The notes below the pieces were generated by a model. That model had not been told where the DNA came from and did not search any database. It worked only from the letters and a program-made list of their open reading frames with translations. Made by a program: the position numbers and the translations under genes. Source: Acidimicrobiia bacterium (lineage in GTDB: Bacteria; Actinomycetota; Acidimicrobiia; Spongiisociales; ZC4RG35). Taken from it: 64,000 nt of DNA. Where the stretch lies: contig CBDFJY010000002.1 in assembly GCA_965248705.1 (NCBI GenBank), positions 919,095-983,094 of the forward strand, read 5' to 3'. Shown here one piece after another: positions 943 through 37,617 of the stretch. Each line of letters opens with the position of its first letter. Position 1 is the stretch's first letter.

Positions 943-2685
943 ATGAGAAAACTGAAATTAGCCATTGCTCTGATGGCTGTCTTGGCGTTGTTGGCTGCGG
1001 CCTGCGGCGATGGCGACGATACGGCTGCTGTTGCTGAAGCCGAAGCCGCTCAGGCTCAGGCTGCTGCTGCCACGGCTCAGGCTGCTGCGGACGCGGCGGC
1101 TGCGGATGTTGCCGCGGCGCAGGCCGAGTTGGAAGCCGCGCAGGCCGAGTTGGAAGATACCCGCGCTGCTGCTGAAGCCGGCGATGCGGAGGCTCAGGCG
1201 GCGTTGGCTGCTGCTGAAGCCGAAGCTGCTGCGGCTCAGGCTGCTGCGGACGCGGCTGAGGCTGCTGCGGAAGACGCGCAAATGACGCTGGAAGCGTCGA
1301 TGATGGTGACGGCGCCCGAGATCCGGGAAGCCGAGGTGGCGATGGGTTTCAACGCCTGCTGCGCCGATTCGGCCTTTTGGCAGATTCCCGTCGATTTGGG
1401 CTGGTGGGATGATTTGAACATAACCATCGTCCCCAACTCGCCTACCTATCACTACTTCACCGCCAGCGCCGACGCCATCGCCTGGTTGCGAAACGGTGAA
1501 GGCGCCGTGGCCCCCGGCTGGGTGCCGGGACTGTTCGGGTCCTTGGAGACCTTCGCTCAGGACATCCCACCGATCTTCTTCGCGGACATCTATGTCGGCT
1601 ATGCCGTCCTGGTAGCGCCTGACAGCCCCTCGAAGACTGCTATGGAGTTTGTGGAGGAAGGTATGTCCTTCCCGGACGCGGCCTTGGCGGCCGTGCAGCA
1701 GCTGGTAGGCTCGGTTATCCACATTCCGCCGCACAGCACACAGCAGGCCCAGTACACGAACGCGTTTTTCGCCTATCTGCCCGAGTGGTGGGAGGCTTAC
1801 CAGGAAGACATTCCCGCTTTGGACGGTGAAGGCAACCCCTTGGTGTTGCTGGGCCGCGACGGCGAGCCACTCCTGGACGATGACGGCAACGTTCAGCCGA
1901 TTCGCATTACGACCAACGACTGGCGCAACTACGCCAATCCTCAGTACGTCGATGATCCCACGATTGTGCAGCTTTCGGCGGTTCCGGGCCGGATCGAGTA
2001 CGCCATGCCCTATGGCGCTCCGACCCTGGTGCAGATGATGCGCAACGGTTGGGATCCGCTGATCAACTTCGGGATGATGATCGAGAACGACCCGTTCTCC
2101 CAGCCGACGGCGATCGCCAGCGCCACTGTCGGCGGCATCGGCCTGTTGGCCAACCGCGAGTGGGTGGAGGCAAACAAGGACCTGACCTACCGAGTCCTCT
2201 CTATCGGCTTTCGGACCTTCGAGTTCCTCGAGGATCCCGAGACCCAGTACCAGGGGTGGGAGATCGAGGCCAATCTCATCAACGAGAAGCGCCAGTTGAG
2301 CATGGATCCCGAGGACATCGGGATCATCTGGACGACCATCGACCCGTCGTTCACCTGGGAGGACCAGGCAGCTGTGTGGGACTTGAACCTGCCCAGCTAC
2401 CACCCAGAGACGGTGTTCAGGACCCAGGTAGAGGCTCTGAAGGCCAAGGGAGTCCTGTCTGCGACCTATGACACGCAGGCTGGGCTCGAGCAGTTCTTGT
2501 TGGCCCAGGATCTCTATTACGACATGAAGGGCATGCAGGACCGTTCCGATGGTCTGTTCGCTACGGCTGAGGGAATGGATCTTTCCGACAGCCAGGCCGC
2601 TTTGGTCGAGCAGGCGCAGGCCCACTATGACATCTATAACTTCTACGACGCTCTCCGCTTCTTGGAGGCTGCCCTTATTGGGTAG
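943..2685 (+). CDS. Substrate-binding lipoprotein of ABC cassette 1: lipoprotein signal (LLAAAC), a ~110-aa Ala/Gln/Glu low-complexity linker, then a ~470-aa globular domain
   Basis: ATG at 943 is preceded by GGAAGGAAG. MRKLKLAIALMAVLALLAAACGDG has signal peptide plus lipobox. The gene heads an operon with two permeases and an ATPase. The reported ORF start at 745 is an upstream over-extension. Confidence 0.6.
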   Translation: MRKLKLAIALMAVLALLAAACGDGDDTAAVAEAEAAQAQAAAATAQAAADAAAADVAAAQAELEAAQAELEDTRAAAEAGDAEAQAALAAAEAEAAAAQAAADAAEAAAEDAQMTLEASMMVTAPEIREAEVAMGFNACCADSAFWQIPVDLGWWDDLNITIVPNSPTYHYFTASADAIAWLRNGEGAVAPGWVPGLFGSLETFAQDIPPIFFADIYVGYAVLVAPDSPSKTAMEFVEEGMSFPDAALAAVQQLVGSVIHIPPHSTQQAQYTNAFFAYLPEWWEAYQEDIPALDGEGNPLVLLGRDGEPLLDDDGNVQPIRITTNDWRNYANPQYVDDPTIVQLSAVPGRIEYAMPYGAPTLVQMMRNGWDPLINFGMMIENDPFSQPTAIASATVGGIGLLANREWVEANKDLTYRVLSIGFRTFEFLEDPETQYQGWEIEANLINEKRQLSMDPEDIGIIWTTIDPSFTWEDQAAVWDLNLPSYHPETVFRTQVEALKAKGVLSATYDTQAGLEQFLLAQDLYYDMKGMQDRSDGLFATAEGMDLSDSQAALVEQAQAHYDIYNFYDALRFLEAALIG

Positions 2686-2726
2686 GCTTTCGGTAGCGAT
2701 TGCCTAGTAGGTAAAAGAGAGGCTCC

Positions 2727-2767
2727 GAGCGCGGGGCCGGACGGTTTTGTCGTCCGGCCCCGCGCTC
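2727..2767 (+). promoter_or_regulatory. Intercistronic 17-bp perfect stem-loop between the binding-protein gene and permease 1 (likely mRNA stabiliser or attenuator)
   Basis: GAGCGCGGGGCCGGACG-GTTTTGT-CGTCCGGCCCCGCGCTC. The copy-2 counterpart has compensatory changes. Confidence 0.5.
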
Positions 2768-2811
2768 GGGCCTGTAGGTAAAGGACCGCGAGGGCGAGGA
2801 AGAGAGATACA

Positions 2812-3762
2812 GTGACCACCACAAGCACCGATGTTCTTGATGTGAGAGCGGCGGCGCATCGTGAAAAGCGGCGCCGTCAGGTTGCCTATAGCATTTATCT
2901 GGTCCTCGGGTTGATTCTTTTTTTGTTGTTTTGGCAGTTGTTGGCCTCGCCTTTTTCGCCTTTTTTCTATCTGATACCGCCGCCCCTTGATGCCGTCAGG
3001 CATTTCGGGGAGAATCTGTTTTTCAGTGAGCGGATGTTGGAGCGGTATGTTCATGCTTGTCCGGATCTGTTGGATGAGTTGGAGTTGACGGGGGGAGGAA
3101 TGTTCGATCTCCCTGATCGCTGTTTTGGGTATATTCTGCATTTGGTGCGGACCACCCGCAATATCATGATTGCGGTTACGCTGGGGACGGTGTTCGGTTT
3201 GTCGGTGGGGCTGAGCAGTTTGGTGTTCCCGAAGATCGCGGATGTGGTGACACCGATCGCTGGTTTTTTCGGGACTACCCCGATTTTCATAGCGGCGCCT
3301 TTTTTTGTGATCTGGTTCGGGATCGAGTATCCCCTGATGACCACCGTGGGGGTGGTTGTCTTTTACACCACCCTCCTCATGTATTTCTTCAGCCGCCGGG
3401 CGGCGGAAAATATACCGGTGGGGATCATTGAGTCGGCTCTTACTCTGGGAGGAGACAGCCGTGCTATTTTCCGGTGGGTGTATTTGCCGGGGACGATACC
3501 CGAGATCGCGGGCGGTTTTCGTATTGCATTGGCCGGCGCTTGGGGATTGGGTACGTTGGTGGAGGTGCTGGGGATACAGATGGGAGGAGGGTTTCTTATT
3601 CGTATGTGGAGCTTCGCCATGGGCCTTGTGGAGGGGCCGTCCGCGGTGGTCTCTCTGATTCTTTTCTTCGGTGTGTTGGCTGTGGTAGTCGACGGTATCC
3701 TGGTGCTGTTTATCCGTTTCATCACCAAGTGGTCCGAGGCCGGTCGCCGGCTGGGTTTGTAG
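2812..3762 (+). CDS. ABC transporter permease 1 (NitT/TauT-type binding-protein-dependent inner-membrane component)
   Basis: Multi-TM protein with EAA-like loop ESALTLGGDSRAIFRWVYLPGTIPEI. GTG start. Lies between the binding-protein and ATPase genes. Confidence 0.75.
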   Translation: MTTTSTDVLDVRAAAHREKRRRQVAYSIYLVLGLILFLLFWQLLASPFSPFFYLIPPPLDAVRHFGENLFFSERMLERYVHACPDLLDELELTGGGMFDLPDRCFGYILHLVRTTRNIMIAVTLGTVFGLSVGLSSLVFPKIADVVTPIAGFFGTTPIFIAAPFFVIWFGIEYPLMTTVGVVVFYTTLLMYFFSRRAAENIPVGIIESALTLGGDSRAIFRWVYLPGTIPEIAGGFRIALAGAWGLGTLVEVLGIQMGGGFLIRMWSFAMGLVEGPSAVVSLILFFGVLAVVVDGILVLFIRFITKWSEAGRRLGL

Positions 3763-3775
3763 GCAAGGAGGAACC

Positions 3776-4552
3776 ATGTCAACTGTTGTGAACTTTGAGA
3801 ACCTGTGGTGTGTATTCGAGCACCGATCCGGGCAATTGGTGCATGCCCTTGAAGACGTCACTTTCCAGGTCGATCCCGGGGAGTTTGTGTGCGTGGTGGG
3901 GAGGTCCGGGCATGGTAAGACCACCCTGCTGAGGGTGTTGGCCGGGCTTCAGCCTCCCACCGCCGGCTATGCCAAGCTGGGCGACACCGCGGTGACGGGG
4001 CCGGGTAGCGACCGGGCCATGGTTTTTCAGCAGGACACGGTGTTCCCCTGGTTGCATGTCCGCGAGAATGTTGAGTTTGGCCTCAGGGCCAACAAGGTTC
4101 CGGATAAGGAGCGGAACGAGATCGCCGATTACTGGTTGGAGGCGGTGGGATTGGAGGATTTCGCCGACTCTTGGCCGCGGGAGCTTTCTGGGGGTATGAG
4201 AAAGCGGGTGGCCTTGGCGGCGGCGATGGCGGTGGGCTCGGATGTTGTCCTTATGGATGAGCCTTTTGGGTCTGTTGATTATTTCACGCGCCGCAATCTT
4301 CATGAGGTTCTTTTGAACCTGTGGTTTGAGACCCGCAAGACCATCTTTTTTGTCACCCATGACATTGAGGAGGCGCTGATTCTTGCTGACCGGGTGATCC
4401 TCTTGGCCGAGGGCAAGCTGGTGGACGATATCGCGGTTTCTCTCCCTCGTCCTCGTAACGAGGATGTCCGGGCTACCCCCGAGGCGGTGAGTGTGTTCAA
4501 GCTGATCCTCGCGCATCTGGGCATCACCGAAGAGGAGGCGACGAAGGCTTGA
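3776..4552 (+). CDS. ABC transporter ATP-binding protein, NitT/TauT (SsuB/TauB/NrtD-like) family
   Basis: Walker A GRSGHGKTT, signature LSGGMRKRVALAAA, Walker B VVLMDEPFGSVD, and the family hallmark MVFQQDTVFPW. Confidence 0.9.
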   Translation: MSTVVNFENLWCVFEHRSGQLVHALEDVTFQVDPGEFVCVVGRSGHGKTTLLRVLAGLQPPTAGYAKLGDTAVTGPGSDRAMVFQQDTVFPWLHVRENVEFGLRANKVPDKERNEIADYWLEAVGLEDFADSWPRELSGGMRKRVALAAAMAVGSDVVLMDEPFGSVDYFTRRNLHEVLLNLWFETRKTIFFVTHDIEEALILADRVILLAEGKLVDDIAVSLPRPRNEDVRATPEAVSVFKLILAHLGITEEEATKA

Positions 4553-5772
4553 ACCAGCCTGCCCGCTTCCGAAGCCTTTATTGGATTGGAGGGCTGATCT
4601 GGGCTGTCTTTCTGGCTCCTTGGTTGCTCGTTCAACTGCCTGAAGGCTTTCTCTTCGTTTCTTGGACATCTGGCGAGGGCGTGATCAACGTTACGTGGTC
4701 GCTCCTTGTTTCTTGGCTGGTTTTGTTGCTGGCCTGGCCGGTTGTGTTCCGCCCGAGTGGGGTCAAGAACCGCCTGGTCAAGATGGGACGGGGGATAGCG
4801 GGGGGGCCGCCGATGCTGTTGGCCGGTATGCGCCGCAGCCCGCTCTTCTTCGTCTCCTGGGCGGTGTTGCTGGTAGCGTGGCAACTGGCGTCTTACATTG
4901 CGCCTTCGGGAGCCCTCGAGCACCCCCTGGTCCCCGGATGGGACTACGTGTTCGGCGAATCCCTCTCCAGAATGTCCGGAGACTGGACCGTCCTTGGGTT
5001 TGACCAGCTCGGGTTTGTAAATTTCCAGGTCGCTGACCTGGCGCCTTATCCCGCCTATGGCGGAGAGAGGACCGTGCCGGCCATTTTCCTCGCCATCGCT
5101 TTTCACTCGGGCGTGACCCTTTTCAGGCTGTTGTGTGGCATGACGATTGGTTTCACGCTCGGTCTCCTGACCGGATTGGCCATTCCCTATTGGCCGGCGT
5201 TGCGCCAGTCCGCTTGGGCGCCCATGAACTTTCTGCGGATGATCCCCCTCCTGGCGGCAATTCCCTGGTTGCAGTTTGCCCTGGGCTCCACCCTCTTTGG
5301 TATCACCATCTATATTGCATTCGGGGTGTGGACGACGCTGGTGGTGGCCACCATGAACTCGGTGGCCAACGTGCCTGACCGGTACATCGAAAGCGCCCGT
5401 ACCCTGGGCGCGTCCCGGCCGTGGACCTATTTCAAGGTGATAGTGCCGGGGGCGATTCCCGAGTTGCGCACCGCCATGTTGCTCGCCATGGGAGGGAGCT
5501 GGTCGCTGGCCATTGCCGCCGAGTTCCTGGGTTTCCCCACCGGGCTGGGATATATGGCAGCGGTGGCGGTGCAGGAAACCAACACCGCCCGGCTGGTGAT
5601 AGTGGCGTTCATCGTGGCTGGTTATTCTCTCACGACCTTCTACTTGCTCAACGAGGGATTCAAAAAGGCCGTGAGTTGGATGCCACAGCGCACCACCGGG
5701 AAGACGGATATCAGCAAGATGGCCGGGGCGGCAGGAGCGGGGGGTCGCGTGGAAAGCATCGAGGGCGGATAG
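4549..5772 (+). CDS. ABC transporter permease 2 with N-terminal membrane extension
   Basis: TTG start overlapping the ATPase stop. C-terminal half carries the permease core ARTLGASRPWTYFKVIVPGAIPELRTAMLLAMGGSW. Confidence 0.75.
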   Translation: MNQPARFRSLYWIGGLIWAVFLAPWLLVQLPEGFLFVSWTSGEGVINVTWSLLVSWLVLLLAWPVVFRPSGVKNRLVKMGRGIAGGPPMLLAGMRRSPLFFVSWAVLLVAWQLASYIAPSGALEHPLVPGWDYVFGESLSRMSGDWTVLGFDQLGFVNFQVADLAPYPAYGGERTVPAIFLAIAFHSGVTLFRLLCGMTIGFTLGLLTGLAIPYWPALRQSAWAPMNFLRMIPLLAAIPWLQFALGSTLFGITIYIAFGVWTTLVVATMNSVANVPDRYIESARTLGASRPWTYFKVIVPGAIPELRTAMLLAMGGSWSLAIAAEFLGFPTGLGYMAAVAVQETNTARLVIVAFIVAGYSLTTFYLLNEGFKKAVSWMPQRTTGKTDISKMAGAAGAGGRVESIEGG

Positions 5773-5859
5773 GCCGCGCCGCAGAATCAGCGTCCGCGAC
5801 GGGCGCCGCGTCGGGATTGACCATCCTGGTTTCTCCCTGCATATGAGGTTACCGGCGCG

Positions 5860-6756
5860 GTGCTGACCGGCATCGTCTTCGGGTTTATCACGGCGGTGAC
5901 GCTGGGGATCAATCATTTGCTCACTGCAGTGGTGGCCCGGCGCTTCGGCGTGCTGCGCTCCACTACCACCACTTTGAGCCTGGCCCTCTTGGTGATGGTC
6001 GCCTGGGCAATCCTCATCGACGTGCCGTTCGAAATCACCACTGACCAACTTGTTTTACTGGCCTTCTTGGGCTCCTGCGCCGGCGGGGCCTTTCTGGGCT
6101 CCTACACGGCCCTCCGACTCGGTCCGATCTCGGTGGTGAGCCCGATCGGCGCTCTGAGTGGCGCCATGACGGTGGTCTTCTCATTCTGGTTGCTGGGGGA
6201 AAGACCCGGCGCGGTGCAGTGGGCGGGGATACCGGTCGCGGTACTGGGAGCGGTGTTGGCATCCGTGGTGATCGAGCGCGGAGCCAAGATTCGACTGGTC
6301 ACCTGGGGGCCGGTCTTCGCCATGATCGGCGTGGTTGTGGGATCGCTCTCCAACGCCGGCCTGAAGATCCCCATCAGGGATGGACTCGACTCCAACCTGA
6401 CCGTCATCACCCAGCGGGTCTACACGGTGGCCTACGTCGCTCTGGTGTTGGTGATTGTCTCCCGGGTGACAGAACGGCGTCGACGAAGGGGAGATGATCC
6501 CCCGTGCCCGGTGAGAATTACCTGGAGGACAGGATGGCTGCTGGGCGTGGTGGGAGTGATCGACGCCGTCTCCTTCATATCATTCGGATACGGTTTGGCG
6601 TATGCTCCGGCTTGGCTGATTGGGATTATCTCCCAAAGCGGACGGGTAATAGCAGTGGTCGGCGGGGTGATGTTCTTCAACGAACGACTCCAATCCCTGC
6701 AGTGGACAGGCGTAGCCCTGGTAACGGTCGGCGTGGCCATGTCCATCGCCGGCTAG
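5860..6756 (+). CDS. EamA/DMT-superfamily transporter (10 TM)
   Basis: Two EamA-like halves, hydrophobic throughout. GTG start, start uncertain. Confidence 0.65.
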   Translation: MLTGIVFGFITAVTLGINHLLTAVVARRFGVLRSTTTTLSLALLVMVAWAILIDVPFEITTDQLVLLAFLGSCAGGAFLGSYTALRLGPISVVSPIGALSGAMTVVFSFWLLGERPGAVQWAGIPVAVLGAVLASVVIERGAKIRLVTWGPVFAMIGVVVGSLSNAGLKIPIRDGLDSNLTVITQRVYTVAYVALVLVIVSRVTERRRRRGDDPPCPVRITWRTGWLLGVVGVIDAVSFISFGYGLAYAPAWLIGIISQSGRVIAVVGGVMFFNERLQSLQWTGVALVTVGVAMSIAG

Positions 6757-6929: not shown

Positions 6930-8687
6930 ATGAGAAAACTGAAATTAGCCATTGCTCTGATGGCTGTCTTGGCGTTGTTGGCTGCGGCCTGCGGCGATGG
7001 CGACGATACGGCTGCTGCGGACGCGGCGGCTGTTGCTGAAGCCGAAGCCGCTCAGGCTCAGGCTGCTGCTGCCACGGCTCAGGCTGCTGCGGACGCGGCG
7101 GCTGCGGATGCTGCCGCGGCGCAGGCCGAGTTGGAAGCCGCCCAGGCTGAACTGGCGGCCACCCAAGCTGCTGCTGAAGCCGGCGATGCGGAAGCGCAGG
7201 CGGAGTTGGCGGCTGCTGAAGCCGAAGCTGCTGCGGCTCAGGCTGCTGCGGACGCGGCTGAGGCTGTTGCGGAAGACGCGCAAATGACGCTGGAAGCGTC
7301 GATGATGGCGACGGCGCCCGAGATCCGGGAACTCGAAGTGGCTATGGGTATAGGTTTCTGTTGCGCCGACTTTGCCTATTGGCAGATTCCCTTGGAATTG
7401 GACTGGTATGACGAATTGGGTATAACCATCGTCCCCAATACGCCTACTTATTGGTATCTCACCAATAGCACCGAGACCAACGCCAAATTGCAGCGTCAAG
7501 AGCTTCACATGGCCAATGGCTGGGTGCCCTCACTGTTCATAGCTCTGGAGACCTTCGCTCAGGAGATTCCAGTGATTCACTTCGCGGATATCTTTATCGG
7601 CTATGCGGTCCTGGTATCGCCCGACAGCGATTCGAAGACTGCCCTGGAGTTCGTGGAGGAAGGGATGTCCTTCTCGGAGGCGGCCACGGCGGCCGTGGAG
7701 CAGTTGGTAGGCGAGGACATCTACATTACGCCGAATAGCACTACACAGGCCCAGTATGCGAACGCGTTTTTCGCCTATCTGCCCGAGTGGTGGGAGGATG
7801 TGCAGGAAGACATTTCCGTAATTGACGAGGAAGGCAACCCCTTGGTGTTGCTGGGCCGCGACGGCCAGCCACTCCTGGATGATGACGGCAACGTTCAGCC
7901 GATTCGCATTACGACCAACGACTGGCGCAATTATGCCAATCCGAAGTACGTCGAGGACCCCATTATCGTGGAGCTTTCGGCTGTTCCGGGCCGGATCGAT
8001 TACGCCATGCCCTTCCAGGCTCCAACCCTGGTGCAGATGATTCGTAACGGCTGGGATCCGCTGATCAACTTCGCGATGATGTTCGAGCACGACGCGTTCT
8101 CCCAGCAGACGGCGATCGCCAGCTCCACCACAGGCGGCACCGGCCTGATTGCCAACCGCGAGTGGGTGGAGGCGAACAAGGACGCGGTCTACCGGATACT
8201 CTCCGTTGCCCACCGGACCTTCGCTTTGCTCGATGATCCCGAGACCCAGCGAATTGGGTGGGAGATCGAGGCCAATCTCATCAACGAGAAGCGCCAGTTG
8301 ACCATGGATCCCGAGGACATCGGAGTCATATGGGAACAGATCGACCCCTCCTTTAACTGGGAGGACCAGGAGGCGCTTTGGGACTTGAACCTGCCCAGCT
8401 ACCACCCAGAGACGGTGTTCAGGAACCAGGTCGAGGAGCGTAAGGCCAAGGGAGAATTGTCTGCGACCTATGACACGCAGGCAGGACTCGAAAGGTTCTT
8501 GTTGGCCCAGGAGCTCTATTACGACATGAAGGGCATGCAGGAACGTTCCGACGAGCTCTTCGCCAGGGCTGAAGGAATGGATCTTTCCGATAGCCAGGCT
8601 GCTTTGGTCGAGCAGGCGCGCCACTGGTACGACATCTATAACTTCTACGACGCTGAGCGCTGGCTTGAGGCTGCCCTTATTGGGTAG
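6930..8687 (+). CDS. Substrate-binding lipoprotein of ABC cassette 2; diverged paralogue of 943..2685
   Basis: Same signal/lipobox and low-complexity linker as copy 1. The globular domain is strongly diverged in its N-terminal part (GIGFCCADFAYWQIPLELDWYDELGITIVPNTPTYWY...). Confidence 0.6.
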   Translation: MRKLKLAIALMAVLALLAAACGDGDDTAAADAAAVAEAEAAQAQAAAATAQAAADAAAADAAAAQAELEAAQAELAATQAAAEAGDAEAQAELAAAEAEAAAAQAAADAAEAVAEDAQMTLEASMMATAPEIRELEVAMGIGFCCADFAYWQIPLELDWYDELGITIVPNTPTYWYLTNSTETNAKLQRQELHMANGWVPSLFIALETFAQEIPVIHFADIFIGYAVLVSPDSDSKTALEFVEEGMSFSEAATAAVEQLVGEDIYITPNSTTQAQYANAFFAYLPEWWEDVQEDISVIDEEGNPLVLLGRDGQPLLDDDGNVQPIRITTNDWRNYANPKYVEDPIIVELSAVPGRIDYAMPFQAPTLVQMIRNGWDPLINFAMMFEHDAFSQQTAIASSTTGGTGLIANREWVEANKDAVYRILSVAHRTFALLDDPETQRIGWEIEANLINEKRQLTMDPEDIGVIWEQIDPSFNWEDQEALWDLNLPSYHPETVFRNQVEERKAKGELSATYDTQAGLERFLLAQELYYDMKGMQERSDELFARAEGMDLSDSQAALVEQARHWYDIYNFYDAERWLEAALIG

Positions 8688-8728
8688 GCTTCCGGTAGCG
8701 ATTGCCTAGTAGGTAAAAGAGAGGCTCC

Positions 8729-8767
8729 GAGCGCGGGCAGGACGGGTTTGTCGTCCTGCCCCGCGCT
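8729..8767 (+). promoter_or_regulatory. Intercistronic stem-loop, copy 2
   Basis: GAGCGCGGGCAGGACG...CGTCCTGCCCCGCGCT. A C>A change on the 5' arm is matched by G>T on the 3' arm relative to copy 1. Confidence 0.5.
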
Positions 8768-8812
8768 TCGGCCTGTAGGTAAAGGACCGCGAGGGCGAGG
8801 AAGAGAGATACA

Positions 8813-9763: not shown

Positions 9764-9776
9764 GCAAGGAGGAACC

Positions 9777-10553: not shown

Positions 10554-11770
10554 ACCAGCCTGCCCGCTTCCGAAGCCTTTATTGGATTGGAGGGCTGATC
10601 TGGGCTGTCTTTCTGGCTCCTTGGTTGCTCGTTCAACTGCCTGAAAGTCTTCCCCTCGTTACCTGGACATATATCGATGGCGTGATCGTCGTGACGTGGT
10701 CGCTCATCCTTTCTTGGCTGGTTTTCTTGCTGGTCTGGCCGGTTGTGTTCCGCCCGAGTGGGGTCAAGAACCGCCTGGTCAAGATGGGACAGGGGATAGC
10801 GGCGGGGCCGCCCCTGCTGTTGGCCGGTATGCGCCGCAGCCCGCTCTTCTTCGTCTCCTGGGCGGTGTTGCTGGTAGCGTGGCAACTGGCGTCTTACCTG
10901 GCGCCTCCGGGAGCCCTCGAGCACCCCCTGGTCCCCGGATGGGACTACGTGTTCGGCGACACCTTCTTCAGAATGTCCGGAGACTGGAGCGTCCGCGGGT
11001 TTGACCTGGAGTTTGTGGTCCTCGATGTCGTGGAACTGGCACCCCTTCCCATCTATGGCGGGGAGGCGACTTGGCCGGCTGTGTTCCTCGCCATCGCTTT
11101 CCACTCCGGCACGACCCTTTTCAGGCTGTTGTGTGGCATGGCGGTCGGTATGAGCCTCGGTCTCCTGACCGGTCTGGCCATTCCCTATTGGCCGCCGCTG
11201 CGCAAGTCCGCTTGGGCGCCTATGAACTTTCTGCGGATGATCCCCCTCCTGGCGGCGATACCCTGGTTGCAGTTTGCCGTGGGCTCCACCCTGTTTGGTA
11301 TCACCATCTATATTGGATTCGGGGTGTGGACGACGATGGTGGTGGCCACCATGAACTCGGTGGCCAACGTACCTGACCGGTACATCGAAAGCGCCCGTAC
11401 CCTGGGCGCGTCCCGGCCGTGGACCTATTACAAGGTGATAGTGCCGGGATCGATTCCCGAGTTGCGCACCGCCATGTTGCTCTCCATGGGAGGGAGCTGG
11501 TCGCTGGCCATTGCCGCCGAGTTCCTGGGTTTCCCCACCGGGCTCGGGTACATGGCCAACGTGGCGGTGCAGGAAACCAACACCGCCCGGCTGGTGATAG
11601 TGGCGTTTATCGTGGCTTTTTATTCTCTCGCCACCTTCTTCTTGCTCAACGAGGGATTCAAAAAGGCCGTTAGTTGGATGCCACAGCGCACCACCGGCAC
11701 GACGGATATCAGCAAGGTGGCCGGGGCGGCAGGAGCGGCGGGTCGCGCGGAAACCCTCGAGGGCGGATAA
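10550..11770 (+). CDS. ABC transporter permease 2, copy 2
   Basis: Paralogue of 4549..5772; same architecture. Confidence 0.75.
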   Translation: MNQPARFRSLYWIGGLIWAVFLAPWLLVQLPESLPLVTWTYIDGVIVVTWSLILSWLVFLLVWPVVFRPSGVKNRLVKMGQGIAAGPPLLLAGMRRSPLFFVSWAVLLVAWQLASYLAPPGALEHPLVPGWDYVFGDTFFRMSGDWSVRGFDLEFVVLDVVELAPLPIYGGEATWPAVFLAIAFHSGTTLFRLLCGMAVGMSLGLLTGLAIPYWPPLRKSAWAPMNFLRMIPLLAAIPWLQFAVGSTLFGITIYIGFGVWTTMVVATMNSVANVPDRYIESARTLGASRPWTYYKVIVPGSIPELRTAMLLSMGGSWSLAIAAEFLGFPTGLGYMANVAVQETNTARLVIVAFIVAFYSLATFFLLNEGFKKAVSWMPQRTTGTTDISKVAGAAGAAGRAETLEGG

Positions 11771-11858
11771 GGCCCGCGCCGCGGAATAACGTCCGCGACA
11801 GGTGCCGCGTCGGGATTGACCATCCTGGGTTCTTTCCGTATAAGAAGCTGTCAACCAG

Positions 11859-12761
11859 TTGCTGACCGGCATCATCTTCGGGTTTATCACCGCGGTGACG
11901 CTGGGCATCAACCAGCTGCTCACTGCAGTGGTGGCCCGGCGCTTCGGCGTGCTGCGCTCCACTGCCATCACTGTGACCCTTGCCCTCTTGGTGATGGTCG
12001 CCTGGGCAATCATCATTCAGGTGCCGCTCGAGATCACCGCCGACCATGTGATCCTCTTGGTCCTGTTGGGTTCCTGTGTCGGCGGGACCTTTCTGTGTGG
12101 GTACACGGCTCTCCGACTCGGTCCGATCTCGGTGGTGAGCCCGATCGGCGCTCTGGGAGGCGCCATGACAGTGGTTTACTCGTTCTGGTTGTTGGGGGAA
12201 AGACCCGGCGCGGTGCAGTGGGCGGGAATACCGGTCGCGGTACTGGGAGCAGTGTTGGCATCCCTGGTGATCGAACGCGGGACCAAGATTCGACTGGTCA
12301 CTTTGGGGCCGGTCTTCGCCTTGATCGGCGTCCTGGTCGGGTCGATCTCCAACGCCGGCCTGAAGATCCCCATCAGGGATGGGGTGGATTCTAACCTCAC
12401 CGTCATCACCCAACGGGTCTTCACGGTGGCTGTCGTTCTTTTGGTGTTGGTAATTGTCCCCAGGGTGACAGAACGTCGACGAAGAAGAGACGCCCGGCAC
12501 GGGGGGAGAGATCCGGTGAAGATCACCTGGAGGACAGGATGGCTGCTGGGCTTGGTGGGATTGATCGACGCCGTCTCCTTCATATCATTCGGATACGGCC
12601 TGGCGTACGCACCGGCCTGGCTAATCGGAATTATCTCCCAAAGCGGACGGGTAATAGCCGTGATCGGCGGGGTGATGTTCTTCAACGAACGACTCCACCA
12701 ACTGCAATGGACAGGCGTAGCCTTGGTAATGGTCGGGGTGGCAATGTCCATCGCCGGCTAG
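11859..12761 (+). CDS. EamA/DMT transporter, copy 2
   Basis: Paralogue of 5860..6756, TTG start. Confidence 0.65.
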   Translation: MLTGIIFGFITAVTLGINQLLTAVVARRFGVLRSTAITVTLALLVMVAWAIIIQVPLEITADHVILLVLLGSCVGGTFLCGYTALRLGPISVVSPIGALGGAMTVVYSFWLLGERPGAVQWAGIPVAVLGAVLASLVIERGTKIRLVTLGPVFALIGVLVGSISNAGLKIPIRDGVDSNLTVITQRVFTVAVVLLVLVIVPRVTERRRRRDARHGGRDPVKITWRTGWLLGLVGLIDAVSFISFGYGLAYAPAWLIGIISQSGRVIAVIGGVMFFNERLHQLQWTGVALVMVGVAMSIAG

Positions 12762-12997
12762 CACCGCGGCCCGAGGAGGTACTCGTTGAGGGATTCAAGA
12801 AGGTCGTTGGTCGGATGCCACAATGCACGGGAAAGTGAACAGATGTCAGCAGGGTGGCCGGGGCGGAAGGAGCAGGAGGCCGCGGTGAAACTCTCGACGA
12901 CGGATAGGGCTTCGGACGCGGAATCGGCGTTCGCGGTCGAGCGGCCAATCGGGATTGGTCAGCCTGGCTTTTCCCTGTATGTGAAGCTGTCAACCAG

Positions 12998-13903
12998 GTG
13001 TTGACCGGCATCATCTTCGGGTTTATCACCGCGGTGACGCTGGGGATCAACCGCCTGCTCACTGCTGTGGTGGTACGGCGTTTCGGCGTGCTGCGCTCTG
13101 TCTCCGTCACTGTGACTCTGGCTTGCTTTTTGATGATGGCCTGGGCGGCGCTGATCGGTGTGCGAGTCGAGATGAATGCCGACCACCTGATCCTCCTGGT
13201 CCTGTTGGGCTCCTGTGTCGGCGGGGCCTTTCTGTGCGGTTACATGGCTCTCCGGGTCGGTCCGATCTCGGTGGTGAGTCCGATCGGCGCTCTGGGAGGC
13301 GCCATGACGGTGGTCTACTCCTTTTGGCTGCTGGGAGAGAGACCCGGCGCGGTGCAGTGGGCGGGAATACCGGTCGCGGTACTGGGAGCGGTGTTGGCGT
13401 CCCTGGTTATCCAGCGGGGGACCAAGATTCGACTGGTCACTTTGGGGCCGGTCTTTGCCTTGACCGGCGTGCTGGTGGGATCGATCTCCAACGCCGGCCT
13501 GAAGATCCCCATAAGGGATGGGGTGGATTCCAACCTCACCGTCATCACCCAACGGGTCTTCACGGTGGCTGTCGTCCTCTTGGTGTTTGTGATCTTCTCC
13601 CGGGTGATAGAACAACGACGACGAAGGGGAGATCCCCGGTACGAGGGGAGCCACCCGGTGAAGATCACCTGGCGGACGGGATGGCTGCTGGGTTTGGTGG
13701 GACTGATCGACGGCGCCTCCTTCATATCCTTCGGATATGCTCTGGCGCATGCACCTGCTTGGCTGATCTCGGTTATCTCCCAAACCGGACGGGTTATAGC
13801 CGTGATCGGCGGGGTGATGTTCTTCAACGAACGACTCCACAGCCTGCAGTGGACAGGCGTAGCTCTAATAAGCGTTGGAGTGGTGATGTCCATCGTCGGT
13901 TAG
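12998..13903 (+). CDS. EamA/DMT transporter, extra tandem copy (2b)
   Basis: Paralogue of 11859..12761. Preceded by a degenerate copy of the permease-2 3' tail. Confidence 0.65.
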   Translation: MLTGIIFGFITAVTLGINRLLTAVVVRRFGVLRSVSVTVTLACFLMMAWAALIGVRVEMNADHLILLVLLGSCVGGAFLCGYMALRVGPISVVSPIGALGGAMTVVYSFWLLGERPGAVQWAGIPVAVLGAVLASLVIQRGTKIRLVTLGPVFALTGVLVGSISNAGLKIPIRDGVDSNLTVITQRVFTVAVVLLVFVIFSRVIEQRRRRGDPRYEGSHPVKITWRTGWLLGLVGLIDGASFISFGYALAHAPAWLISVISQTGRVIAVIGGVMFFNERLHSLQWTGVALISVGVVMSIVG

Positions 13904-13931
13904 CACTGCCGCTAGCCGTTGGTTATGAAGA

Positions 13932-14140: not shown

Positions 14141-14245
14141 CTTGCCTGAGGGCCCGGCAGGGAAGTGGTTTTTGCGCCTTTCCGCGGTGATTGGCAACAG
14201 AACCCGCCTCCGTGGGCTGGGGCCAGAGCTGGGTGGAGTCGGTGC

Positions 14246-15085
14246 TCAGTTCTCGGGGAAGGTGTACTGGAATACCCCGCCGGTGCGGATCATCTCGGCA
14301 GCGATGGCGTCGGCGTGGTCGATGAATCGGCGGAGCATGGCGTTGATTTGGTCCGGCACGTCTTGGAGTGCGCGATGTCCGGCGCCGACCGGTCTGCCGA
14401 TCACCACTTGGGGGCACAGCTCGCGGAGCAGGTCCAAGTCGAGGCGGGGTTGGCCGCAGTCAATGTACAGATACGGGCATTTCACTCCGGCCAGCACCGG
14501 CGCGGGATCGAAGCTGCTCATTCCATGCCAGCCGTTGAGGATCACGTGGTCGGGAACTTGCGCGAGCCGCGCGGCCATGGTTCCTACCCGGGAGGGGTCG
14601 TCGGTGGGCAGATAGGAGGCGCGAAGAAATCCGCGCAATGTCTCCCGGAAGGGGAGATCCTTTTGCATGAGGTGATCGAAGGGTCCGTGATGGTACTTCT
14701 GCCATCCGGGGATGTTGCTGGGCGAGTCGAGGCTGGCGATGGCGCTCACCAGTTCGGGATGGCGGGCGGCGGCCGAGATGATCACCTGTCCTCCCATGCT
14801 CTGGCCCACCAGCACGGGCCGATTCAGTTCCAGTTGGCGGATGAGTTCGGCCACGTCATCGCCGTGTTGGGCCATGGTGTAGGTCTCATCGGGCTTGTCG
14901 CTTTCCCCGTGGCCGCGCAGATCGACCGCCACGCACCGGTGATTGGGGGAGAAGTACTCCTCCTGGAAGCCGAAGCCTTCCCGATTGCCGAAGCCCCCGT
15001 GGATGAAAATGATGGCCGGATCGCCGGAGCCTAATTCGTGGTACGCAATGCGGTCGCCGTCGGGGGTAGTAATCCATTCAGTCAT
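14246..15085 (-). CDS. Alpha/beta-fold hydrolase, paralogue 1
   Basis: HG oxyanion motif IFIHGGFG, nucleophile elbow GQSMGG, C-terminal catalytic His in GAGH; 279 aa. Confidence 0.8.
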   Translation of the reverse strand: MTEWITTPDGDRIAYHELGSGDPAIIFIHGGFGNREGFGFQEEYFSPNHRCVAVDLRGHGESDKPDETYTMAQHGDDVAELIRQLELNRPVLVGQSMGGQVIISAAARHPELVSAIASLDSPSNIPGWQKYHHGPFDHLMQKDLPFRETLRGFLRASYLPTDDPSRVGTMAARLAQVPDHVILNGWHGMSSFDPAPVLAGVKCPYLYIDCGQPRLDLDLLRELCPQVVIGRPVGAGHRALQDVPDQINAMLRRFIDHADAIAAEMIRTGGVFQYTFPEN

Positions 15086-15388: not shown

Positions 15389-17002
15389 TTGGTCGACAGC
15401 CGTTGGCCCGACGAGCAAGCGAGCGGAAGGAAAGCGCAAACGAGGAAATTCATATCAGCTATTTCTCTGGTGGCTATCTTGGCGTTGTTGGCTGCGGCCT
15501 GCGGCGACGGCGCGGCGGATACGGCTGCTGCGGACGCGGCTGTTGCTCAGGCCGAAGCCGCTGAGGCTGAGGCTGCTGCCAAGGAAGCCGACGAGGCCCA
15601 GAAGGCTCTGGAAGGGTCGATGATGGTGGAGGCCCCCGAGATTCGGGAAGCCGAGGTTGCGATGGGTTTCAACGCCTGTTGTGCCGATATGGCTTTTTGG
15701 CAGATTCCCGTCGAGTTGGGCTGGTGGGATGATTTGAATATCACCATCGTTCCCAATTCGTCCACCTATTACTATTTCGCCGCCGGCGCCGAGGCCATCG
15801 CCTGGTTGCGGAGCGGTGAAGGCGCCGTGGCCCCTGGGTGGGTGCCGGGACTGTTCGGGTCGTTGGAGACCTTTGCTCAGGAAGTCCCGCCGATTTTCTT
15901 CGCGGACATCTATGTCGGCTATGCGGTCCTGGTTGCGCCGGATAGTCCCTCCAAGACTGTGCTTGAGTTCGTGGAGGAAGGGATGTCTTTCCCGGAAGCC
16001 GCCTTGGCGGCCGTCCAGCAGTTGGTAGGGGCGGATATTTACATTTCGCCCAGCACCCAGCAGGCTCAGTACATGGATGCGTTCTTCGCTTATCTGCCCG
16101 AGTGGTGGGAGGCTTATCAGGAGGACATTCCCGCTTTGGACGAGGATGGCAACCCTCTGGTGTTGTTGGGCCGCGACGGCGAGCCACTTCTGGACGAGGA
16201 CGGCAGCGTTCAGCCGATTCGGATCACGACCAACGACTGGCGTAACTATGCCAACCCGCAGTACGTCCATGACCCCACGATCCTGGCGCTTTCGGCTGTT
16301 CCGGGCCGGATCGAGTACGCCATGCCTTATAGCGCTCCGACCCTGGTGCAGATGATGCGCAACGGTTGGGATCCGCTGATCAACTTCGGGATGATGTTCG
16401 AGAATGATCCGGTCTCCCAGCAGACGGCGATCGCCAACTCCACTGTCGGCGGTATAGGCCTGCTAGCGAACCGCGAATGGGTCAATAACAACAAGGACCT
16501 GGCCTACAGGGTTCTCTCTGCCGCCTATCGTACCTTTGAGTTCCTCGATGATCCTGAGACCCAGTACCAGGGGTGGGAGATCGAGGCCAATCTCATCAAC
16601 GAGAAGCGCCAGTTGAGCATGGAGCCTGAGGACATCGGGATCATCTGGTCGACCATCGATCCCTCCTTTAACTGGGAGGAGCAGGCGGCGCTGTGGGACT
16701 TGAACCTCCCGAGCTACCACCCCGAGATAGTGTTCGTCACTCAGATCGAGAAGCTGAAGGCCAAGGGGGTGTTGTCCGAGGACTATGACACGCAGGCCGG
16801 GCTGAAAGAGTTCTTGTTGGCCCAGGACCTCTACTATGAGATGAAGGAATTCGAGACGCGCTCCGACGCACTATTCGAGAGAGCTTCGGGAAGAGATCTT
16901 TCCCCGGCCCAGGCCGCTTTAATCGCCCAGGCGCAGTTCCACTATGACATCTATAACTTCTACGACGCTCTCCGCTTCTTGGAGGCTGCCCTTATCGGGT
17001 AG
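15389..17002 (+). CDS. Substrate-binding lipoprotein of ABC cassette 3
   Basis: Paralogue of copy 1. The ancestral ATG is mutated to ACG, so an upstream ATG at 15389 gives a longer signal n-region. Shorter low-complexity linker. Confidence 0.5.
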   Translation: MVDSRWPDEQASGRKAQTRKFISAISLVAILALLAAACGDGAADTAAADAAVAQAEAAEAEAAAKEADEAQKALEGSMMVEAPEIREAEVAMGFNACCADMAFWQIPVELGWWDDLNITIVPNSSTYYYFAAGAEAIAWLRSGEGAVAPGWVPGLFGSLETFAQEVPPIFFADIYVGYAVLVAPDSPSKTVLEFVEEGMSFPEAALAAVQQLVGADIYISPSTQQAQYMDAFFAYLPEWWEAYQEDIPALDEDGNPLVLLGRDGEPLLDEDGSVQPIRITTNDWRNYANPQYVHDPTILALSAVPGRIEYAMPYSAPTLVQMMRNGWDPLINFGMMFENDPVSQQTAIANSTVGGIGLLANREWVNNNKDLAYRVLSAAYRTFEFLDDPETQYQGWEIEANLINEKRQLSMEPEDIGIIWSTIDPSFNWEEQAALWDLNLPSYHPEIVFVTQIEKLKAKGVLSEDYDTQAGLKEFLLAQDLYYEMKEFETRSDALFERASGRDLSPAQAALIAQAQFHYDIYNFYDALRFLEAALIG

Positions 17003-17135
17003 GCTTCCGGTTCGATTGCCTAGTGGCAAAAAAAAGCGCCGCTCCGGCCTGTAAGCAGGACTGCGAGGAAGAGAGAGCGGCGGCGCATCGCCAGAAACGG
17101 CGCCGCCAAATCACCGAGGAGGAGGCGACGAAAGC

Positions 17136-18353
17136 TTGAACCAACCAGCCCTCTTCCGACGTCTGTTCTGGGTTGGGTGGCTGATCTGGGCTGTCCTGAT
17201 TCCGTGGTTGCTTATTCAGTTGCCGGAAAGCCTTCCTTTCGTTACCTGGACGCATGGTGAGGGTGTGATCAACGTCACGTGGTCTTATATCGTTTCCGGG
17301 TTGGTGTTGTTCTGGGCTTGGCCGGTTGTGTTCCGCACGACCCGGTTCAAGGACCGTCTGGTCAGGGCGGGGCGGGGGATAGCGGCGGGGCCGCCGATGC
17401 TGTGGGCTGGTATGCGCCGTAGCCCGCTCTTCTTCGTCTCTTGGGTGGTGTTGCTGGTGGCGTGGCAGGTGGCGTCTTATGTTGCGCCTCCGGGAATTCT
17501 CGAGCATCCCCTGGTTCCCGGATGGGACTACGTGTTCGGTGACACCTTCTTCGGATTGTCCGGGTACTGGACCGTCCGCGTGTTGGACCTTGGGTTCGCG
17601 ACCTTCCATCTCGACGGACTGGCGCCGCTTCCCATCTATGGTGGGGAGGAGACCTGGCCGGCCGTGTTCCTCGCAATCGCTTATCACTCCGGTACGACCC
17701 TTTTCAGGCTGTTGTGTGGCATGGTGGTCGGCGTGACGCTCGGTCTCCTGACCGGTCTGGGCCTTCCCTACTGGCCGGCGGTGCGCCAGACCGCGTGGGC
17801 GCCCATGAACTTCCTGCGGATGATCCCCCTCCTAGTGGCGATTCCCTGGTTGCAGTTCGCCGTGGGCTCCAGCCTCACTGGTATCACCCTCTATATCGCC
17901 TTCGGGGTGTGGACGACGCTGGTGGTGGCCACCATGAATGCGGTAGCCAACGTGCCCGACCGGTACATCGAAAGCGCCCGTACCCTGGGCGCCTCCCGGC
18001 CGCGCACCTATTTCAAAGTGATAGTGCCGGGGTCGATTCCAGAACTGCGCACCGCCATGCTGCTCGCCATGGGAGGGAGCTGGTCGCTGGCGATCGCCGC
18101 CGAGTTCCTGGGTTTCTCCGCCGGGCTGGGGTACATGGCCAACGGGGCGGTGCAGGAAACCAACACCGCCCGGCTGTTGATAGTGGCGTTCATCGTGGCT
18201 CTTTATTCTCTCACGACTTTCTTCTTGCTCAACGAGGGATTCAAAAAGGCCGTTAGCTGGATGCCCCAGCGTACCACCAGGGGGCCGGACATCGCTAAGG
18301 TGGCCGGGGCGGCAGGAGCGGCAGGCCCCGTCGAAACCCTGGAAGACAGATAG
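17136..18353 (+). CDS. ABC transporter permease 2, copy 3
   Basis: Paralogue of 4549..5772. Permease 1 and the ATPase are missing upstream. Confidence 0.7.
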   Translation: MNQPALFRRLFWVGWLIWAVLIPWLLIQLPESLPFVTWTHGEGVINVTWSYIVSGLVLFWAWPVVFRTTRFKDRLVRAGRGIAAGPPMLWAGMRRSPLFFVSWVVLLVAWQVASYVAPPGILEHPLVPGWDYVFGDTFFGLSGYWTVRVLDLGFATFHLDGLAPLPIYGGEETWPAVFLAIAYHSGTTLFRLLCGMVVGVTLGLLTGLGLPYWPAVRQTAWAPMNFLRMIPLLVAIPWLQFAVGSSLTGITLYIAFGVWTTLVVATMNAVANVPDRYIESARTLGASRPRTYFKVIVPGSIPELRTAMLLAMGGSWSLAIAAEFLGFSAGLGYMANGAVQETNTARLLIVAFIVALYSLTTFFLLNEGFKKAVSWMPQRTTRGPDIAKVAGAAGAAGPVETLEDR

Positions 18354-18428
18354 GACCCGCTTGCAGTTGGGCGGTGCGTCGGGACCTAGGCGCCATGGCC
18401 TCTTTCCGTTTATGAAGCTGTCCACGGG

Positions 18429-19325
18429 GTGCTGACCGGCGTCATCTTCGGGTTTATAACCGCGGTGACGCTGGGGATCAACAGTCTGCTCACTGCCGTA
18501 GTGGCGCGGCGCTTCGGCGTGCTGCGCTCTGCTGCCGCCACGCTGACGCTGGCTCTCTTGGTGATGGTCGCCTGGGCAATCCTCATCGACGTGCCGCTCG
18601 AGATGACCACCGACCATCTGATCCTCTTGACCTTTCTGGGCACCTGCGTCGGCGCCTCCTTTCTGGGCTCCTATATGGCCCTCCGACTGGGCCCGATCTC
18701 CGTGGTAACACCGATCGGCTCTCTGGGGACCGCGATGACAGTGGTCTACTCCTTTTGGCTGCTGGGGGAAAGACCCGGTGCCTTGCAGTGGGCGGGAATA
18801 CCGATCGCCGTGCTGGGAGCAGTACTGGTATCGCTTGTAATCAAACGCGGGACCAGGGTTCGACTGGTCACCTGGGGACCGGTCTTCGCGTTGATCGGCG
18901 TATTCGTAGGATCGATCTCCAACGCCGGCCTGAAGATCCCCATCAGGGACGGAGTCGACTCCAACCTGACCGTAATCACCCAACGGGTCTTCACAGTGGC
19001 CTTCGTCCTGTTGGCGTTGGTGGTTTTCTCCCGGCTGGGATTACGGCGTCGGCGAGAGGGAGATGACCCTCAGTACCCGATGAGGATCACCTGGAAGACA
19101 GGATGGCTCTTGGGCCTGGTGGGACTGATCGACGGCGTCTCTTTCATATCATTCGGATACGGATTGGCCTACGCACCGGCCTGGTTGATCGCGATCATCT
19201 CCCAAAGCGGAAAGGTGATAGCCGTAATCGGCGGGGTGATCTTCTTCAAGGAACGACTCCACCGACTTCAGTGGACCGGCGTGGGGCTGATAATGGTCGG
19301 CGTGATGATGTCCCTCGTCGGCTAA
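18429..19325 (+). CDS. EamA/DMT transporter, copy 3
   Basis: Paralogue of 5860..6756, GTG start. Confidence 0.65.
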   Translation: MLTGVIFGFITAVTLGINSLLTAVVARRFGVLRSAAATLTLALLVMVAWAILIDVPLEMTTDHLILLTFLGTCVGASFLGSYMALRLGPISVVTPIGSLGTAMTVVYSFWLLGERPGALQWAGIPIAVLGAVLVSLVIKRGTRVRLVTWGPVFALIGVFVGSISNAGLKIPIRDGVDSNLTVITQRVFTVAFVLLALVVFSRLGLRRRREGDDPQYPMRITWKTGWLLGLVGLIDGVSFISFGYGLAYAPAWLIAIISQSGKVIAVIGGVIFFKERLHRLQWTGVGLIMVGVMMSLVG

Positions 19326-20500: not shown

Positions 20501-20573
20501 GTGCCGTAGCGTAGTTGTCGGGGTCTCATAGACGGCTAGGGACAGGTCACTATGACGGCTTCGGGTGCAATCC

Positions 20574-37615: not shown

Positions 37616-37617
37616 GA

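Follow-up and report, generated by a model that had tools for sequence, protein, structure and literature searches.

A tandemly amplified NitT/TauT-type ABC importer module of Acidimicrobiia with distinct binding proteins, a homogenized ATPase and a constant EamA partner

Importers of the NitT/TauT type, such as TauABC and SsuABC, combine an ATP-binding cassette (ABC) ATPase and one kind of permease with a two-lobe binding protein of about 300 amino acids (aa). An ABC importer can also be fed by more than one binding protein: HisJ and LAO share HisQMP, a multi-binding-protein importer with orphan binding proteins. The selenocysteine-assisted organometallic (SAO) system has a vicinal cysteine pair (CC) in the cleft of SaoX and CU in SaoB, and its exporter, SaoE, is found only together with the SAO importer (bioRxiv 10.1101/2022.07.06.499078). 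Here we describe a transporter locus that resembles each of these systems in part. It lies in a 64,000-nt stretch of DNA from Acidimicrobiia bacterium (the window; assembly GCA_965248705.1, contig CBDFJY010000002.1, positions 919,095 to 983,094 of the forward strand), and the positions below are those of the window.

The transporter unit is repeated in tandem on the + strand at 943-6756, 6930-13903 and 15389-19325. We read it, with moderate confidence, as a lineage-specific, tandemly amplified NitT/TauT-type ABC importer module whose pattern of divergence fits substrate-range diversification. What is new is the unannotated binding-protein subfamily, the fixed EamA partner and the co-amplified hydrolases on an importer of this type. 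The three units are composed as follows.

943-2685, +: binding protein 1, a 580-aa lipoprotein of type 'FNA-CCAD-S'
2812-3762, +: permease 1 of unit 1, 316 aa, BPD_transp_1, TauC/SsuC-like
3577-4644, +: 1,068-bp exact repeat (= 9578-10645), covering the 3' end of permease 1, the entire ATPase and the 5' end of permease 2
3776-4552, +: ATPase of unit 1, 258 aa, TauB/SsuB/NrtCD-like
4549-5772, +: permease 2 of unit 1, 407 aa, N-terminal extension with extra transmembrane (TM) segments
5860-6756, +: EamA/DMT carrier of unit 1, 298 aa, two EamA repeats
6930-8687, +: binding protein 2, 585 aa, type 'IGF-CCAD-F', its N-lobe the most divergent among the three
8813-9763, +: permease 1 of unit 2
9777-10553, +: ATPase of unit 2, DNA 100% identical to unit 1
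10550-11770, +: permease 2 of unit 2
11859-12761, +: EamA 2a
12998-13903, +: EamA 2b, the additional EamA of unit 2, with its own orthologue group in related genomes
15389-17002, +: binding protein 3, 537 aa from TTG, shorter linker, type 'FNA-CCAD-M'
17003-17135, +: deletion scar of 133 bp, permease 1 and ATPase gone
17136-18353, +: permease 2 of unit 3, 405 aa
18429-19325, +: EamA 3

An earlier note, made from the DNA letters, had described three five-gene units. The repeat is present where the note placed it, but the units hold five, six (with two EamA genes) and three genes, respectively. When the window was searched by tblastn with the five proteins of unit 1, no extra copies emerged, and unit 3 showed no trace of permease 1 or the ATPase. 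The scar at 17003-17135 aligns first with the spacer between binding protein and permease 1 of unit 1, and then with the final ~30 nt of the ATPase gene; this latter part still encodes ITEEEATKA followed by a stop. Since the scar joins spacer to ATPase tail, unit 3 is a once-full unit that lost ~1.75 kb by deletion.

The genes of the unit differ in how far the copies have diverged. The two ATPase genes are identical at 777 of 777 nt, while protein identity between copies is 93% for permease 1, 79-86% for permease 2, 78-85% for EamA and 73-84% for the binding protein; the earlier statement that ATPase and permeases are nearly or fully identical is thus correct for the ATPase and too strong for the permeases. 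Along the alignment of units 1 and 2, identity is between 100% and 61%, with the lowest value at 1433-1533, in the early globular domain of the binding protein; the signal peptide and linker directly upstream are 96-99% identical. The note had placed the strongest divergence of all three lipoproteins in this N-terminal part. That describes protein 2 against proteins 1 and 3; the latter two are similar in the N-lobe and differ chiefly near the C-terminus.

Comparison with related genomes indicates that two processes act on the locus. Within a genome, ATPase genes are 100, 99.2, 98.2 or 97.2% identical in DNA, against 82-92% between genomes; in two genomes (L009 and L013) the ATPases still show orthology rather than within-genome homogenization. 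Binding-protein paralogues are nearest to their counterparts in other genomes (94-96%, against 75-83% within a genome): window binding protein 1 is 94.3% identical to L018.1, and window binding protein 2 is 96.4% identical to L018.2. Permease 1 is partly homogenized within genomes, and permease 2 mostly keeps cross-species orthology. Relative to single-copy genomes, protein identity is ~75% for the binding protein and ~60-63% for the permeases, and between paralogues this order is reversed (binding protein 77%, permeases 86-94%). The ATPase thus evolves in concert where the unit is duplicated, and the 3577-4644 repeat is read as a gene-conversion tract. A homogenized ATPase beside orthologous binding proteins is the signature of gene conversion on the motor, with selection against homogenization of the binding protein. 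The locus thus offers a clear case from nature of two opposing processes, in which the motor is homogenized and the substrate-facing parts are held distinct.

Multi-unit loci are confined to the window's subclade. Single-copy genomes all carry the type 'IYP-CCAD-L', which is the outgroup state (YPCCAD). Amplified genomes carry 'FNA-CCAD-S' in unit 1, 'IG[FTH]-CCAD-F' in unit 2 and 'FNA-CCAD-M/L/T' in the last unit or orphan. Across all four types, 225 of the 463 globular positions are conserved, and 41 are type-specific, that is, conserved within each type and different between types. Divergence is not spread equally: 23 of the 41 lie within globular residues 13-110, in the N-terminal lobe (odds ratio 5.9, p = 2.5e-7). 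They include 19-20 just before CC, 28, a block at 55-72, 79-80, 93 and 100-101; outside this region, the strand-end loop 142-145 (HIPPH, YISP or YITPG) holds more. In the periplasmic-binding-protein fold, it is the cleft-facing strand-end loops that make ligand contacts.

The binding protein itself represents an unannotated subfamily. It is built as a bacterial lipoprotein: the lipobox (LLAAAC) is followed by a linker of ~95 aa rich in Ala and Glu, which is shorter in protein 3, and by a globular part of 463 aa (encoded at 1294-2682, 7296-8684 and 15608-16999), and the [LVI][ASTVI][GAS]C pattern was read directly off the three proteins and their homologues. None of the three matched a Pfam or NCBIfam model at E <= 0.1, and a direct sequence search of the PDB gave no match. 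A word-indexed search retrieved 162 homologues, all unnamed or 'hypothetical' and most at least 66% identical, and a profile search of 1.84 billion representatives retrieved 230 clusters (defined at 50% identity) at E <= 0.001, mostly proteins of 430-480 aa. Among 50 distant relatives scanned, 30 match Pfam NMT1 (PF09084) and 26 match NMT1_2 (PF13379), thresholds that just the distant relatives and not the window proteins reach. An AlphaFold model from a 116-sequence alignment has a pLDDT of 92.3 and a pTM of 0.90; an earlier model from 20 close homologues (pLDDT 65) was set aside. Foldseek against the PDB places TauA, SsuA, ThiY, Thi5, PqqT and CmpA at the top, with target TM-scores of ~0.6-0.7 over a ~300-residue core, and the family profile matches the PDB sequences 3qsl (6e-7), CmpA (1e-5) and SsuA (1.5e-4). 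On the evidence of the NMT1-matching relatives, the model and the profile matches, the binding protein is predicted to be a divergent, enlarged version of the NMT1-like (NitT/TauT) two-lobe fold. The enlargement consists of a C-terminal helical extension of ~130 aa, common to all 116 relatives, and a 47-aa insertion (globular residues 166-212) found in the closest clade only. A GWVPG loop is invariant and aligns, in the profile alignment, within one residue of an NrtA/CmpA loop that we take to hold the ligand-binding Trp.

The vicinal CC is encoded at 1357-1362 (aa 139-140 of protein 1), 7359-7364 and 15677-15682. Besides the lipobox Cys, these are the only cysteines in binding proteins 1-3. 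The pair directly follows predicted strand 1, is invariant in close homologues and arises via one extra residue; non-CC relatives carry a single residue there. CC may be in direct contact with the ligand, and either a vicinal disulfide or a free dithiol is compatible with the sequence. A literature search found nothing on vicinal disulfides in binding proteins, and the pair is an unusual, testable feature for a protein of this kind.

Some homologues depart from this organization. A 683-aa member of the CC clade (L049, 2945-4996) has a long N-terminal region with faint S-layer-homology matches and no ABC or EamA genes around it; its neighbors encode an endonuclease and a C11 peptidase. Two others (P0122, 846 aa; P0123, 695 aa) have similarly long N-termini, and the three may be wall-anchored binding proteins with a different role. 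In OZ241390.1 (L038, L039), a second binding-protein gene lies 1.7 Mb from the full unit; its sequence is the same in all segments inspected, and none of the module's other genes is within 10 kb.

The membrane and motor components place the system among known importers. The ATPase matches PF00005 (1e-29) and, among NCBIfam models, SaoA (1.7e-64), TauB (4.4e-62), NtrCD (2.1e-58) and SsuB (1.7e-55). Both permeases match PF00528 (BPD_transp_1), with SaoP, TauC, SsuC and NtrB as best NCBIfam matches. Because the scores stay under the equivalog cut-offs (TauB 209.9 against 357; SsuB 188 against 395; TauC 38.7-54.6 against 342), the ATPase is assigned at family level only, and the NCBIfam scan of the binding proteins gave no TauA or SsuA match. 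The system is nevertheless a NitT/TauT-type ABC importer (Transporter Classification 3.A.1.16/17): it has the ATPase type, the BPD_transp_1 permease and the NMT1-like two-lobe binding protein, its heterodimeric permeases (26% identical to each other) being atypical. Permease 2 varies between copies in two loops, aa 29-49 and 119-179, whose 82 residues hold 28 of the 59 differences (p = 2e-7); both loops are predicted to be periplasmic by hydropathy and the positive-inside rule. The translocator is therefore only partly shared: sharing holds for the ATPase and largely for permease 1, and permease 2 is cassette-specific.

Several statements of the earlier note can be judged at this point. The importer class, the conserved CC (in all three binding proteins) and the large globular domain without a recognized family agree with our results, and the domain, to which no HMM matches directly, now has a probable fold from structure and profile comparison. 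The proposal of diversification on a shared translocator is supported in part, and on its central point: the binding proteins do stay distinct, with N-lobe clustering, but permease 2 goes with its own cassette.

Permease 1 has a further feature: a loop of ~60 aa after TM1 (permease 1 at 2812-3762) contains two cysteines, aa 82 and 104 (ACPDLL...DLPDRC), kept in units 1 and 2. They may form a periplasmic disulfide at the docking surface.

To place the module in a wider context, one genome per species from 185,579 species (GTDB) was scanned with the alignment of close homologues as the query. The scan found 39 loci, all in Acidimicrobiia or in unclassified 'bacterium' metagenome-assembled genomes (MAGs); several are named Ca. 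Spongiisociaceae or Spongiisocius, and it is on these lineage names that the sponge association rests. A literature search found nothing on such a transporter in sponge Acidimicrobiia, and the 'Spongiisoci' papers concern an unrelated archaeon. The order binding protein, permease 1, ATPase, permease 2, EamA is kept in essentially every complete locus (~30 Acidimicrobiia genomes), mostly in a single copy. A relative with 42% identity, also of the CC clade, lies on a contig of 53% GC with the order hydrolase, unrelated 474-aa gene, binding protein, permease, ATPase, permease and EamA, the last followed by SDR and P450 genes. A non-CC relative (L053) has binding protein, permease, ATPase and permease followed by hydantoinase A/B, without EamA. 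The two-permease layout is therefore a trait of the wider 'long NMT1-like' subfamily, and in the loci examined EamA and hydrolases accompany the CC clade.

The neighboring genes of the module in the window are these.

3-809, +: 3' end of a xanthine dehydrogenase (XDH)-family molybdenum-subunit gene, 89% identical by tblastn to a PF01315/PF02738/PF20256 gene of L009
14246-15085, -: alpha/beta-hydrolase paralogue 1, 279 aa, GQSMGG, without signal peptide, between units 2 and 3
19661-20500, 20574-21413, 21543-22448, 22871-23710 and 23841-24710, -: five further tandem alpha/beta-hydrolase paralogues

In most loci, 2-6 convergent hydrolase paralogues lie downstream of the module. The six in the window (~279 aa) are 73-87% identical to each other; in the two long reading frames the aligned Met starts are at ~22385 and ~24680. 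All six have GQSMGG or GHSMGG, HGG and GAGH, match PF00561 and PF12697 and lack a signal peptide. They are serine alpha/beta-hydrolases by their GxSxG elbow, HG oxyanion motif and C-terminal His, and matches to PDB sequences are generic only. Haloalkane dehalogenases use an Asp nucleophile; that identity was rejected for these proteins, whose nucleophile is Ser. Since hydrolases accompany the module in most related genomes and in the 42%-identical relative, their copy number seems to have risen along with that of the transporter. Long open reading frames (ORFs) of up to 630 aa on the + strand at 14165-15034 and 20565-24749 were discounted as antisense shadows of the hydrolase genes, in DNA of 60-64% GC.

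A subset of loci also has, upstream, an XDH-family gene pair, two deaminases and two PALP enzymes, and the window starts inside the molybdenum-subunit gene of that pair. The neighborhoods as a whole (molybdenum hydroxylase, deaminases, the relatives' hydantoinases, serine hydrolases and P450) hint weakly at N-heterocyclic or ester/lactone-type compounds as substrates. The window also holds hydantoinase B and A (oxoprolinase-type) genes at 56793-60646 (-), ~37 kb from the cassettes; the same pair adjoins the L053 transporter.

The EamA carriers match PF00892 in two stretches (4e-23; 82.6 bits against a cut-off of 28.2) and are membrane proteins of ~300 aa. They fall short of the cut-off for the phosphonate-associated EamA (TIGR03340; 40.7-41.7 bits against 288), and a PDB sequence search gave no match. 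The pairing with an ABC importer, which the earlier note had singled out, proves constant across the ~30 genomes and extends to the 42%-identical relative. The window has four EamA genes and three binding-protein genes. The last unit of several related genomes has shrunk further and consists of binding protein and EamA only. In at least 10 loci, the EamA behind the terminal or orphan binding protein belongs to a single orthologue group with 90-98% identity to EamA 3, and the reduced unit is therefore maintained, not decaying. By its gene content, a reduced-unit binding protein would have to use membrane components encoded elsewhere in the locus, which supports the shared-translocator idea for the ATPase and permease 1. 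On gene neighborhood, the simplest reading of EamA is that it would serve product export or a parallel route of uptake.

These observations can be combined into a model. A full unit comprises a membrane-tethered lipoprotein, two unlike permeases around one ATPase, giving a heterodimeric membrane part, and one EamA/DMT carrier, with the presumably cytoplasmic serine alpha/beta-hydrolases on the opposite strand as part of the conserved neighborhood. The unit would have been duplicated in the ancestor of the window's subclade. Gene conversion would then have kept the ATPase and the adjacent ends of the permease genes alike within each genome, while the binding proteins (the N-lobe foremost), the predicted periplasmic loops of permease 2, the EamA carriers and the hydrolases stayed distinct. 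Unit 3 lost permease 1 and the ATPase by deletion, and so must borrow both from units 1 or 2. The three binding proteins may bind distinct but related small organic solutes and deliver them to translocators with a common ATPase type; imported compounds may then be processed by the hydrolases, and EamA may export a product or offer a second transport route.

Several observations weigh against substrate diversification as the cause of this pattern. When the three binding proteins were compared in windows, all pairwise ratios of amino-acid-changing to silent divergence (dN/dS) were below 1. The N-lobe window of protein 2 against protein 1 (dN 0.39, dS 0.84) has the highest dS, so the N-lobe looks like an old divergence shielded from gene conversion, protected from homogenization rather than changing by rapid adaptation. 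Fixed differences between types B1 and C comprise 62 amino-acid-changing and 4 silent changes, against 262 changing and 454 silent within types, but silent-site saturation within types inflates this contrast, and the ratio is therefore used solely to show type-specific constraint. Positive selection was dropped, given that no window exceeds 1 and the McDonald-Kreitman-like ratio is confounded by the saturation. The helix at 55-72, which holds many type-specific residues, could face the permease and not the ligand, and the permease-2 loops co-vary. The roles of hydrolase and EamA are read from gene neighborhood only, the flanking XDH, deaminase and PALP genes differ in other loci and are not universal, and an Rfam search of 1-25000 gave chance-level matches alone, with no riboswitch or other regulatory clue.

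Since the permease-2 differences fall in predicted periplasmic loops, docking specificity could account for part of the binding-protein divergence. Carried further, each binding protein would have co-evolved with its own permease 2, insulating the transporters from one another while all take up the same substrate, and the unit would have been amplified for dosage or regulation. The concentration of permease-2 differences in those loops, the position of the densest type-specific block (55-72) in a helix plus loop and not in a classic strand-end loop, and the cross-species orthology that permease 2, like the binding protein, mostly keeps all speak for this explanation. We regard it as possible but unlikely, since orphan binding proteins without their own permease persist in at least 10 loci and must dock on a non-cognate permease, the CC-flanking residues and the strand-end loop 142-145 also vary by type, and EamA and hydrolase paralogues are likewise amplified and kept distinct, beyond what dosage alone requires. 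The repeat, and above all its identical 1,068-bp tract, might also be an artifact of assembly or polishing, as the source is a MAG-type long contig in which collapse or consensus polishing can yield exact repeats. This is exceedingly improbable: the same layout, with double EamA, truncated last unit and same flanks, is seen in independent assemblies (L006-L008, L014, L016, L018, L025), and the ATPase pairs of other genomes are near-identical, not identical (99.2, 98.2, 97.2%), as expected from recurrent gene conversion.

Two further explanations concern CC and EamA. CC could be a thiophilic site, and the system an importer of metals, metalloids or organometallic compounds in the manner of SAO, for which EamA would be the efflux valve. 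In favor of this, CC is invariant, is located at the strand-1 loop and has no second Cys pair beside it in the mature protein; the ATPase and both permeases find their best NCBIfam matches in SaoA and SaoP; and SAO itself offers the precedent of CC/CU binding proteins with an exporter, SaoE, tied to the importer (bioRxiv 10.1101/2022.07.06.499078). The scores, however, are far under the family cut-offs (SaoA 217.6 against 360; SaoP 44.3 and 74 against 295), and the NCBIfam scan gave no SaoB or SaoX match for the binding proteins. Downstream of the EAA loop, the position of SaoP's gating Sec/Cys, both permeases are free of Cys, and no MerB-like lyase or other SAO gene was found in the window or the related loci examined. 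The serine hydrolases, as conserved neighbors, point to organic substrates, and an extracytoplasmic CC in an aerobe may be a mere vicinal disulfide; we judge a thiophilic importer improbable. Alternatively, EamA would be the true partner of the orphan binding proteins, as a binding-protein-dependent secondary transporter of the DMT superfamily and thus a new class. Binding protein-EamA pairs without an ABC membrane gene do recur with an EamA orthologue conserved at 90-98%, EamA genes outnumber binding-protein genes in the window (four to three), and the association reaches the 42%-identical relative. Yet each genome with such a pair retains at least one full ABC unit in the same locus, some orphan binding-protein genes have no adjacent EamA (L017, L039) or adjoin another binding-protein gene (L012, L019), EamA is a plain two-repeat carrier of ~300 aa with no added domain, and non-CC relatives have the same permease-ATPase-permease layout without EamA, all of which makes this alternative very improbable. 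The combined proposal that CC takes a direct part in ligand capture (as thiol/disulfide or thiophilic site) and that orphan binding proteins work with their EamA partners as a DMT transporter is likewise highly doubtful; if it were true, the EamA pairing would join TRAP and TTT as the third class of secondary carrier that depends on a binding protein.

Some features of the cassettes bear on how they are expressed. Binding protein 3 lacks an ATG: where proteins 1 and 2 have the Met of MRK, its aligned codon is ACG, and TTG at 15389 is the sole start that gives a full signal peptide, with an unusually long n-region. In the related genome L006, the gene caller picked a GTG just 10 residues ahead of the lipobox Cys. 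The spacer between binding protein 1 and permease 1 contains a GC-rich inverted repeat of ~39 nt (2700-2745; CTCCGAGCGCGGGGCCGGAC...GTCCGGCCCCGCGCTCGGG), which may be an intra-operon attenuator or mRNA stabilizer that raises expression of the binding protein over the downstream genes; the homologous spacer remnant in unit 3 is without it. A scan for promoters and terminators gave background levels.

Two genes elsewhere in the window deserve mention. A 691-aa ORF at 37462-39537 (+) matches PF10712, 'NAD-specific glutamate dehydrogenase' (5e-134), and overlaps a 623-aa ORF on the opposite strand (37618-39489) that adjoins a DnaJ gene. PF10712 is, we assume, an antisense artifact of dnaK, so the real gene, at 37618-39489 (-), is probably DnaK. 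At 30658-31308 (-), a 216-aa protein matches the GPP34 (Golgi phosphoprotein 3) domain (1e-42), a family better known from eukaryotes.

The locus thus defines a binding-protein subfamily of ~230 clusters, with a much smaller CC clade, tied to a fixed gene set of two permeases, an ATPase, EamA and serine hydrolases, and its three binding proteins are at hand as baits for ligand fishing. Should the transported compounds come from the host, the amplified module would be a sign of metabolic specialization in these symbionts.

Set beside the SAO system, the module likewise has a lipoprotein with CC in the cleft region, an exporter gene beside the importer and SaoA and SaoP as top NCBIfam matches. 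Unlike SAO, its units have no SaoB or SaoX homology, no permease-gate Cys/Sec and no MerB-like lyase, and they occur in Acidimicrobiia of aerobic type, whereas SAO hosts are anaerobes; the likeness is a shared working principle at most. The 'long' NMT1-like proteins beside hydantoinase/oxoprolinase genes (as in L053) share the C-terminal helical extension and the gene order, but are without CC, insertion and EamA and match Pfam NMT1 directly.

With TauABC, SsuABC and other NitT/TauT importers, the module shares the ATPase and permease families, the two-lobe fold and the leading position of the binding-protein gene. It differs in its 463-aa globular domain, which has no direct Pfam or NCBIfam match, with the 47-aa insertion of the closest clade, the ~130-aa C-terminal extension common to the small 'long NMT1-like' subfamily, CC and the ~95-aa Ala/Glu linker, in its two unlike permeases instead of one and in EamA as a fixed member of the unit. 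As with HisJ and LAO, several paralogous binding proteins, some without membrane genes of their own, would feed a common translocator. Here, however, duplication has involved whole units, divergence of the binding protein is accompanied by that of permease 2, gene conversion maintains an identical ATPase and an additional binding protein usually comes with its EamA partner.

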